Program-made: the position numbers and the translations under genes
The notes under the pieces: generated by a model
Databases searched by the model: none
What the model was told of the DNA's origin: nothing
What the model saw: only the letters and a program-made list of their open reading frames with translations
Origin: Escherichia coli
GTDB taxonomy: Bacteria > Pseudomonadota > Gammaproteobacteria > Enterobacterales > Enterobacteriaceae
NCBI RefSeq assembly: GCF_003334355.1
Contig: NZ_QOWP01000009.1
Length of the DNA: 64,000 nucleotides
Direction: 5' to 3' (one strand)
Shown: in pieces, positions 2,605-3,053 of the stretch
Layout of the letters: every line of letters begins with the position of its first letter
Numbering within the stretch: position 1 is the stretch's first letter

Positions 2605-2803
2605 AATTATAATAAATATTATTGTTGAGTGTTATATTATTATTCCTGTGTGATACATTGAGCAAAGACGCGTTCATCTTCGTCAAAGATATTATTAAAT
2701 GCTGGTTTTGAAAAAAGTTCATCGGATAAGATATAGTCACGAAATAAGTATCTGCTAATATTTTATGATTTCTTTTTCAGAACGTCGAACGGGATTTTCT
2801 TAT

Positions 2804-2959
2804 TTAAGATATCAGAATCTTATGATTCGGGTAAAATTCTAAATAAATCAACATGTCATTAAAATCATCATAGCCATTAGCTATTTCGACTAAAATAGAG
2901 ACTACATGTCTTCGGTCCATCTCACTTAAGGAGTGTAGTTCCGTTGTAAGTTTTTCCAT
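2804..2959 (-). CDS. hypothetical small protein, 51 aa (MEKLTTELHSLSEMDRRHVVSILVEIANGYDDFNDMLIYLEFYPNHKILIS); possibly the small gene annotated yrhD in K-12
   Basis: Hand-translated from the minus strand of the AT-rich spacer between the immunity ORF and yrhB; below the 60-aa cutoff of the ORF track. No convincing Shine-Dalgarno; an in-frame GTG lies 3 codons upstream. Name yrhD is from memory of a 51-aa gene at this locus and is uncertain. Confidence 0.35.
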   Translation of the reverse strand: MEKLTTELHSLSEMDRRHVVSILVEIANGYDDFNDMLIYLEFYPNHKILIS

Positions 2960-3053
2960 AGCTTGCACTGCTAAATTTCGAACAAGGAATTTTCTGCTGG
3001 TAATCTCTAAAAAGATGGCATGGTTTACAATGATTTTTGTTTCCTTTTGATTA

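Follow-up and report, generated by a model that had tools for sequence, protein, structure and literature searches.

The ggt-gntR region of Escherichia coli raises the question of whether yrhA, which is split by an IS1 copy in K-12, is intact in the stretch of DNA analysed here (64 kb, hereafter the window), and what an intact copy would say about the lineage of the window and about the function of the gene. A first-pass annotation had placed the K-12 IS1 between yrhA and yrhB with yrhA disrupted as a result; it had seen no IS1 in the corresponding interval of the window (2605-3053), had described a 164-codon immunity gene as uninterrupted, and had proposed either a non-K-12 lineage or the state before the insertion.

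The list of open reading frames and the RefSeq annotation of the near-identical genome 1297KP identified the first 8 kb of the window as the E. coli ggt-gntR region. The ggt gene (513-2282, plus strand) is followed on the minus strand by yrhB (2320-2604; 94 aa), an open reading frame that has the same coordinates in the RefSeq annotation of 1297KP and that encodes a predicted polymorphic-toxin immunity protein of the Pfam Imm35 family. The interval 2605-3053 coincides exactly with the spacer that separates yrhB (start at 2604) from yrhA (stop at 3054); it is 449 bp long, has about 31% GC, carries no IS1 and contains the small annotated reading frame yrhD (2804-2959, minus strand; 51 aa), which is annotated both in K-12 (b4612) and in 1297KP. 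Next come an intact yrhA of 164 codons (3054-3548, minus strand), which would encode a SUKH-fold immunity protein of YhhZ, and yhhZ itself (3545-4723, minus strand; annotated tssD), whose 392-aa product combines Hcp with a predicted C-terminal HNH (His-Me finger) nuclease toxin domain of the Hcp-ET1 type. The yhhY gene (4960-5448, minus strand) follows, and yhhX, yhhW and gntR complete the 8-kb region. The small RNA RyhB (5599-5663, plus strand; Rfam RF00057, 83 bits) lies at its expected place between yhhY and yhhX, and was the sole Rfam match in the window. The GC profile delimited an AT-rich islet of 2.34 kb (2621-4961), variably present in E. coli, that holds yrhD, yrhA and yhhZ, with a GC content of about 30-35% against about 52% in the flanks. 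When promoters and terminators were scanned for between 2250 and 5000, the counts equalled those of shuffled controls, except for the ggt terminator at 2290-2313.

To begin with the IS1 itself, a blastn search of the whole 64-kb window with the K-12 copy, IS1E, gave no match longer than 27 nt (E of 1.7 or higher), and a tblastn search with InsA and InsB found nothing significant, the best hit (E 0.09) being located at 46.9 kb, far from the locus. A scan for the IS1 terminal repeat, with a degenerate end pattern of about 23 bp and up to three mismatches, returned zero matches in 64 kb. No target duplication was present in the window either, as GACATTAAA was found once, at 3159-3167. None of the features of IS1 is thus carried by the window, in contrast to the K-12 element at yrhA, which has the terminal repeats and insA/insB and whose AT-rich target is duplicated over 9 bp. 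The yrhA frame runs continuously on the minus strand, and both its coordinates and its length are those of the RefSeq 'protein YrhA' WP_000988496.1 in 1297KP. The absence of IS1 from 2605-3053 and the uninterrupted 164-codon frame, as first described, were therefore both borne out.

The position of the K-12 element had to be revised. In MG1655, IS1E is located at 3583428-3584195 (768 bp, with insA6/insB6), inside yrhA, and yrhA (b3443) is annotated as a pseudogene in two fragments joined across IS1E, followed by yrhD and yrhB. The window aligned with MG1655 as two ungapped segments, 1-3167 and 3159-8586, which share 9 bp, and GACATTAAA was found on both sides of the 768-bp IS1E in K-12. The 9-bp overlap at 3159-3167, together with the copies of GACATTAAA on both sides of IS1E, places the K-12 insertion inside yrhA, at codons 128-130. 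The corresponding site of the window is thus an empty target, GACATTAAA on the minus strand in a single copy, and it lies 106 bp to the right of the end of 2605-3053. Between the yrhA stop and yrhB, K-12 and the window are collinear over 449 bp, with one SNP (position 2889) and no gap. The annotation was hence correct in terms of gene order (5' yrhA fragment, IS1, yrhD, yrhB) but not in locating IS1 in the yrhA-yrhB interval. By its own criterion, the same uninterrupted arrangement in K-12 would mean a wrong position for IS1; the alignment gave this result for 2605-3053, but not for yrhA itself. In gene order, flanks and the presence of yrhD, yrhB and yhhZ, the MG1655 locus is like that of the window; it differs by about 0.8% in the flanks and by IS1E with its 9-bp duplication in codons 128-130.

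The other two genes next to yrhA were also inspected. YrhB matched Pfam Imm35 (PF15567, E 4.6e-23) with residues 5-83 aligned to positions 1-85 of the 85-position model, and the protein is the same as K-12 YrhB, where it is annotated 'putative heat shock chaperone'. The GC content of yrhB is core-like, the gene is kept in strains without the islet, and no neighbouring toxin gene was evident. Searches with the yrhD product against Pfam, NCBIfam and PADLOC returned no family. No stop codon interrupts the yrhD frame over the 85 codons that reach back to the yrhA stop (2807-3058, minus strand), and three rare database proteins (P0001, P0005 and P0002; 234-247 aa) were found to be YrhA-YrhD fusions; a separate 1-nt deletion, at most about 5 nt away from the yrhA stop, accounts for each of them. 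The idea that yrhD forms the 3' end of a longer conserved gene, or a second YrhA domain, was considered and rejected as unsupported. The reading frames downstream of yrhA in Citrobacter were unrelated to YrhD and to YrhB. By our own estimate, an open extension of 30 codons in DNA of 30% GC has a chance of about 0.08, and since the fusions require a 1-nt deletion near the stop, their clustering follows from how such fusions are detected. The long yrhD frame and the fusions are thus probably the outcome of chance plus detection bias.

We then turned to the identity of YrhA. The protein matched its own NCBIfam family, NF038335, with 125.5 bits against a cut-off of 55 (residues 4-163 aligned to positions 2-149 of the 150-position model). 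Pfam gave no match to the YrhA of the window even at E of 10 or below, and nothing usable with the alignment of the YrhA family, in which one of 20 homologues reached SUKH_6 (E 4.6e-4); a PDB sequence search with YrhA returned chance antibody matches only. The PADLOC defence models did not match any of four proteins of the locus, YrhD among them. Because the Pfam and PDB sequence searches gave nothing usable, the fold was taken from a predicted model, and this model, of medium confidence, supports a SUKH (Smi1/Knr4) alpha/beta fold for YrhA. The structures listed for the comparison of the fold were 2icg, YobK (2prv), 2pag, the Smi1/Knr4-family structure 3d5p, Knr4 (5j1b), the T6SS immunity proteins 8g0k_D (Tdi1) and 6itw (Atu4351), Syd (3ffv) and FBXO3 (9kbf_C). 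Compared with the SUKH (Syd/US22/Knr4; SMI1-KNR4) superfamily, for example YobK of B. subtilis, the similarity of YrhA falls below Pfam detection and the protein is curated separately as NF038335.

The gene upstream of yrhA was analysed as well. The N-terminus of YhhZ is Hcp, as revealed by Pfam PF05638 (T6SS_HCP; E 4.3e-10, residues 27-139) and by TIGR03344 (115.2 bits against a cut-off of 58.9). Its C-terminus gave a weak Pfam HNH match (E 0.013, residues 322-343), the motif HH..L..GG....N......H aligned with Cas8f-HNH structures (E 0.04), and a survey of His-Me finger proteins places YhhZ in its group 32 (PMC5714182). On these matches, the product of yhhZ would be an Hcp tube protein with an HNH DNase as its C-terminal extension, a T6SS effector of the Hcp-ET1 type.

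The start of yrhA overlaps the stop of yhhZ by 4 bp (ATGA), and the two genes were also found together outside E. coli. In Citrobacter, the same chromosomal site carries yhhY, then an Hcp-toxin with 69% identity, then a YrhA homologue and then ggt. In Leclercia and in one further contig, YrhA homologues (58% and 45% identical, respectively) are encoded directly after proteins with a DUF8093 N-terminus (loci L010, 2845-4501, and L013, 3124-4501), and the last ~210 residues of these DUF8093 proteins are 68% and 57% identical to YhhZ 171-382. The C-terminal toxin domain thus changes carriers together with the yrhA-like gene, a behaviour characteristic of polymorphic toxins and their cognate immunity proteins. 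As a separate observation, the DUF8093-toxin locus of Leclercia adjoins Imm63 and Imm70 genes and a large filamentous-haemagglutinin/PT-VENN (CdiA-like) protein.

A pair of this kind has been described in the literature. Hcp-ET1 is an orphan Hcp HNH-DNase with a colicin-like domain, reported to be delivered by T6SS2 and to have antibacterial activity (PMC6730261; PMC6099711; 10.1101/2024.03.05.583533), and ETI1, encoded downstream of Hcp-ET1, was reported to neutralise it (10.1101/2024.03.05.583533). Hcp-ET1/ETI1 come from STEC004, O104:H4 C227-11 and 55989 (Ma et al., 2017, as summarised in PMC6730261, PMC6099711 and 10.1101/2024.03.05.583533). The window likewise has an orphan hcp with a predicted C-terminal HNH domain, followed by the immunity gene. 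According to the preprint, YrhA of strain 154 is 99.4% identical to ETI1 (10.1101/2024.03.05.583533); we found that strain 154 carries the yhhZ-yrhA locus, with a YrhA identical to that of the window and a YhhZ that differs from it at six residues. The equation of YhhZ/YrhA with Hcp-ET1/ETI1 is based on the reviews and on the description and gene numbering given in the preprint. In the role inferred from ETI1, YrhA would bind and block the nuclease domain of YhhZ in the producer and its siblings.

The fate of yrhA in K-12 was examined at the protein level. Once IS1E and one of the two target copies are taken out, K-12 YrhA has 164 aa, and a single residue, 120, separates it from the YrhA of the window (Y in K-12, D in the window). 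The 768-bp IS1E would have entered yrhA at codon 130, duplicating GACATTAAA, and the frame as it is now present in K-12 ends in ...YDIKGDAANLLI and a stop (YDIK-GDAANLLI), that is, 130 native residues followed by eight encoded by IS1. Beyond codon 130 lie the invariant residues F134, E135, I136, R137 and D138 (the FEIRD motif) as well as the predicted strands 133-137 and 145-149 and the predicted helix 152-163. The invariant FEIRD motif would thereby be missing from K-12 YrhA, as would two strands of the beta core and the C-terminal helix. Since this conserved core is lost, the truncated K-12 YrhA is probably inactive.

Other alleles of the locus showed further rearrangements. In BY68 (NZ_CP090212.1, locus L006, 2567-3334), an IS1 copy that is 96.5% identical to IS1E replaces 1,185 bp corresponding to 2349-3533 of the window; yrhD is lost completely, yrhB for the most part and yrhA apart from its first few codons, and the 392-aa yhhZ is intact. 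In BY68 the immunity gene has thus been lost a second time, through an IS1-linked event independent of the one in K-12. In PSS-12 and 980-2, insertions of IS5 and ISKpn26 (IS5 family) break yhhZ, and insertion sequences appear to have hit the AT-rich islet repeatedly. In KBN10P04869 (NZ_CP026473.1, locus L005, 6339-6433), the islet (2621-4961) is absent, about 95 bp being present instead, and yrhB abuts yhhY.

These alleles bear on whether YrhA is an immunity protein at all. It might be a SUKH-fold protein with another role, for example a chaperone or adaptor that loads the Hcp-toxin, and be irrelevant to self-protection. Such a role would agree with the survival of K-12 and BY68, which carry yhhZ intact but have yrhA broken or deleted, with the lack of a Pfam immunity-family match for YrhA, and with the occurrence of SUKH domains in the non-immunity proteins Syd, Knr4 and FBXO3. 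However, YrhA is co-inherited with the C-terminal domain of the toxin and not with the Hcp carrier, which is the pattern of an immunity protein and not of an adaptor; the reported neutralisation of Hcp-ET1 by ETI1 also speaks against it. Moreover, K-12 is stated to lack T6SS genes (PMC6730261), so no sibling attack is expected there. We therefore consider a role other than immunity quite unlikely. The reading of YrhA as an immunity protein is supported by fold, by gene linkage and by the literature, and the label 'immunity gene' given at first sight can be kept.

As K-12 and BY68 keep yhhZ without a functional yrhA, yrhA must be dispensable, at least where the toxin is silent or undelivered. 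The immunity gene has been lost at least twice through independent IS1 events, IS1E in K-12 and the 1.2-kb deletion in BY68, and in both the toxin gene is intact. A more far-reaching, and in our estimation improbable, explanation is that YhhZ is harmless to its own cytoplasm unless delivered by a T6SS (being silenced or needing activation), and that yrhA is kept only by the attack of T6SS-armed kin. If this were true, the intact yhhZ-yrhA pair of the window would mark a lineage that is still exposed to T6SS-armed kin.

In order to place the window among E. coli lineages, it was compared with MG1655 and with complete genomes. The identity to MG1655 was 99.19% over 58.5 kb, with 476 substitutions. 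A 2.8-kb segment after glgP (22802-25643) carries two genes for PstS-family substrate-binding proteins, where K-12 keeps just the remnant yzgL. It was also observed that 64 bp of K-12 (3547896-3547959, gntT to malQ) are missing from the window near 41477. The complete genomes closest to the window were PSS-12 and 1297KP, not K-12, and the near-identical ones differ from it at three positions in 8 kb. When window 3083-3243 was matched at 100% identity, no match was obtained among the 5,426 complete genomes. Two substitutions are private to the window with respect to K-12 and 1297KP, at 2889 (A24V in yrhD) and at 3129 (synonymous, codon 140 of yrhA).

The distribution of the empty and the occupied site was determined by matching probes to the sample of 5,426 complete E. 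coli genomes. Of these, 358 contained a full match to a 160-bp probe spanning the yrhA/IS1E junction of K-12, and 352 a full match to a junction-specific 44-bp probe. Among the matches listed for the 44-bp probe, all 57 junction-bearing genomes were K-12 strains, derivatives or near-identical relatives, a membership judged by name, source or size and confirmed by sequence for two; the three remaining genomes listed were partial chance matches and not junctions. The junction carriers listed include MG1655, MC4100, BW2952, DH10B, DH5a, XL1-Blue, TG1, C600 and O16:H48. Two carriers with unexpected sources were compared with MG1655 over 11.4 kb; THB42-F4, a transconjugant, was 100% identical to it and USML2 99.94%. 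The uninterrupted site, on the other hand, was found in 3,414 of the 5,426 genomes; the yrhA sequence was present in 3,776, and about 1,650 were without it. Within the genomes compared, IS1E in yrhA can thus be read as a marker of the K-12 lineage.

An intact yrhA could also have been obtained from K-12 itself, if the window came from a derivative in which IS1E had been precisely excised or engineered out ('clean genome'), so that yrhA would be restored and not ancestral. The single copy of the 9-bp target is what such a scarless removal leaves. But the substitutions, the extra 2.8 kb and the missing 64 bp separate the window from K-12, genuine derivatives of K-12 show 100% or 99.94% identity over 11.4 kb in this region, and the best matches of the window are non-K-12 isolates; an origin by excision or engineering is accordingly extremely improbable. 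That the absence of IS1 is an assembly artefact, in which a repeated IS copy was collapsed or skipped, is just as remote: IS elements often cause misassembly, but no result pointed to it here, and a skipped copy would normally leave two target copies or a contig break, whereas the frame here is continuous with one 9-mer and the locus is collinear with 3,414 complete genomes, near-identical ones included. The density of SNPs and the collinearity thus lead us to reject excision, engineering and misassembly alike, and the empty IS1E site together with the divergence of about 0.8% indicates that the window is not from K-12.

The window therefore very probably represents the ggt-yhhY region of a non-K-12 E. 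coli in the ancestral, never-inserted state, with an islet that carries a yhhZ-yrhA toxin-immunity module. Both proposals made at the outset hold under this reading: the non-K-12 lineage is evident from the substitutions, from the 2.8 kb absent from K-12 and from PSS-12 and 1297KP as closest genomes, and the pre-insertion state from the single 9-bp target and from the junction being confined to 352-358 of 5,426 genomes against 3,414 with the empty site. The locus of the window would simply be without the insertion of IS1E that occurred in the K-12 lineage.

The contrast between an intact yrhA and the split yrhA of K-12 is a known strain difference, documented in annotations or in the literature, and has little import beyond strain typing. 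Most commonly, E. coli has the yhhZ-yrhA pair intact; it is annotated in thousands of RefSeq genomes and is the Hcp-ET1/ETI1 of the T6SS literature. It does bring two corrections. The first is positional, in that the K-12 IS1 is located inside yrhA, at a site corresponding to 3159-3167 of the window, and not in the gap between yrhA and yrhB. The second is functional: the 'uncharacterized' YrhA of K-12 is a predicted SUKH-fold immunity protein, of which the K-12 copy is without the conserved C-terminal core.
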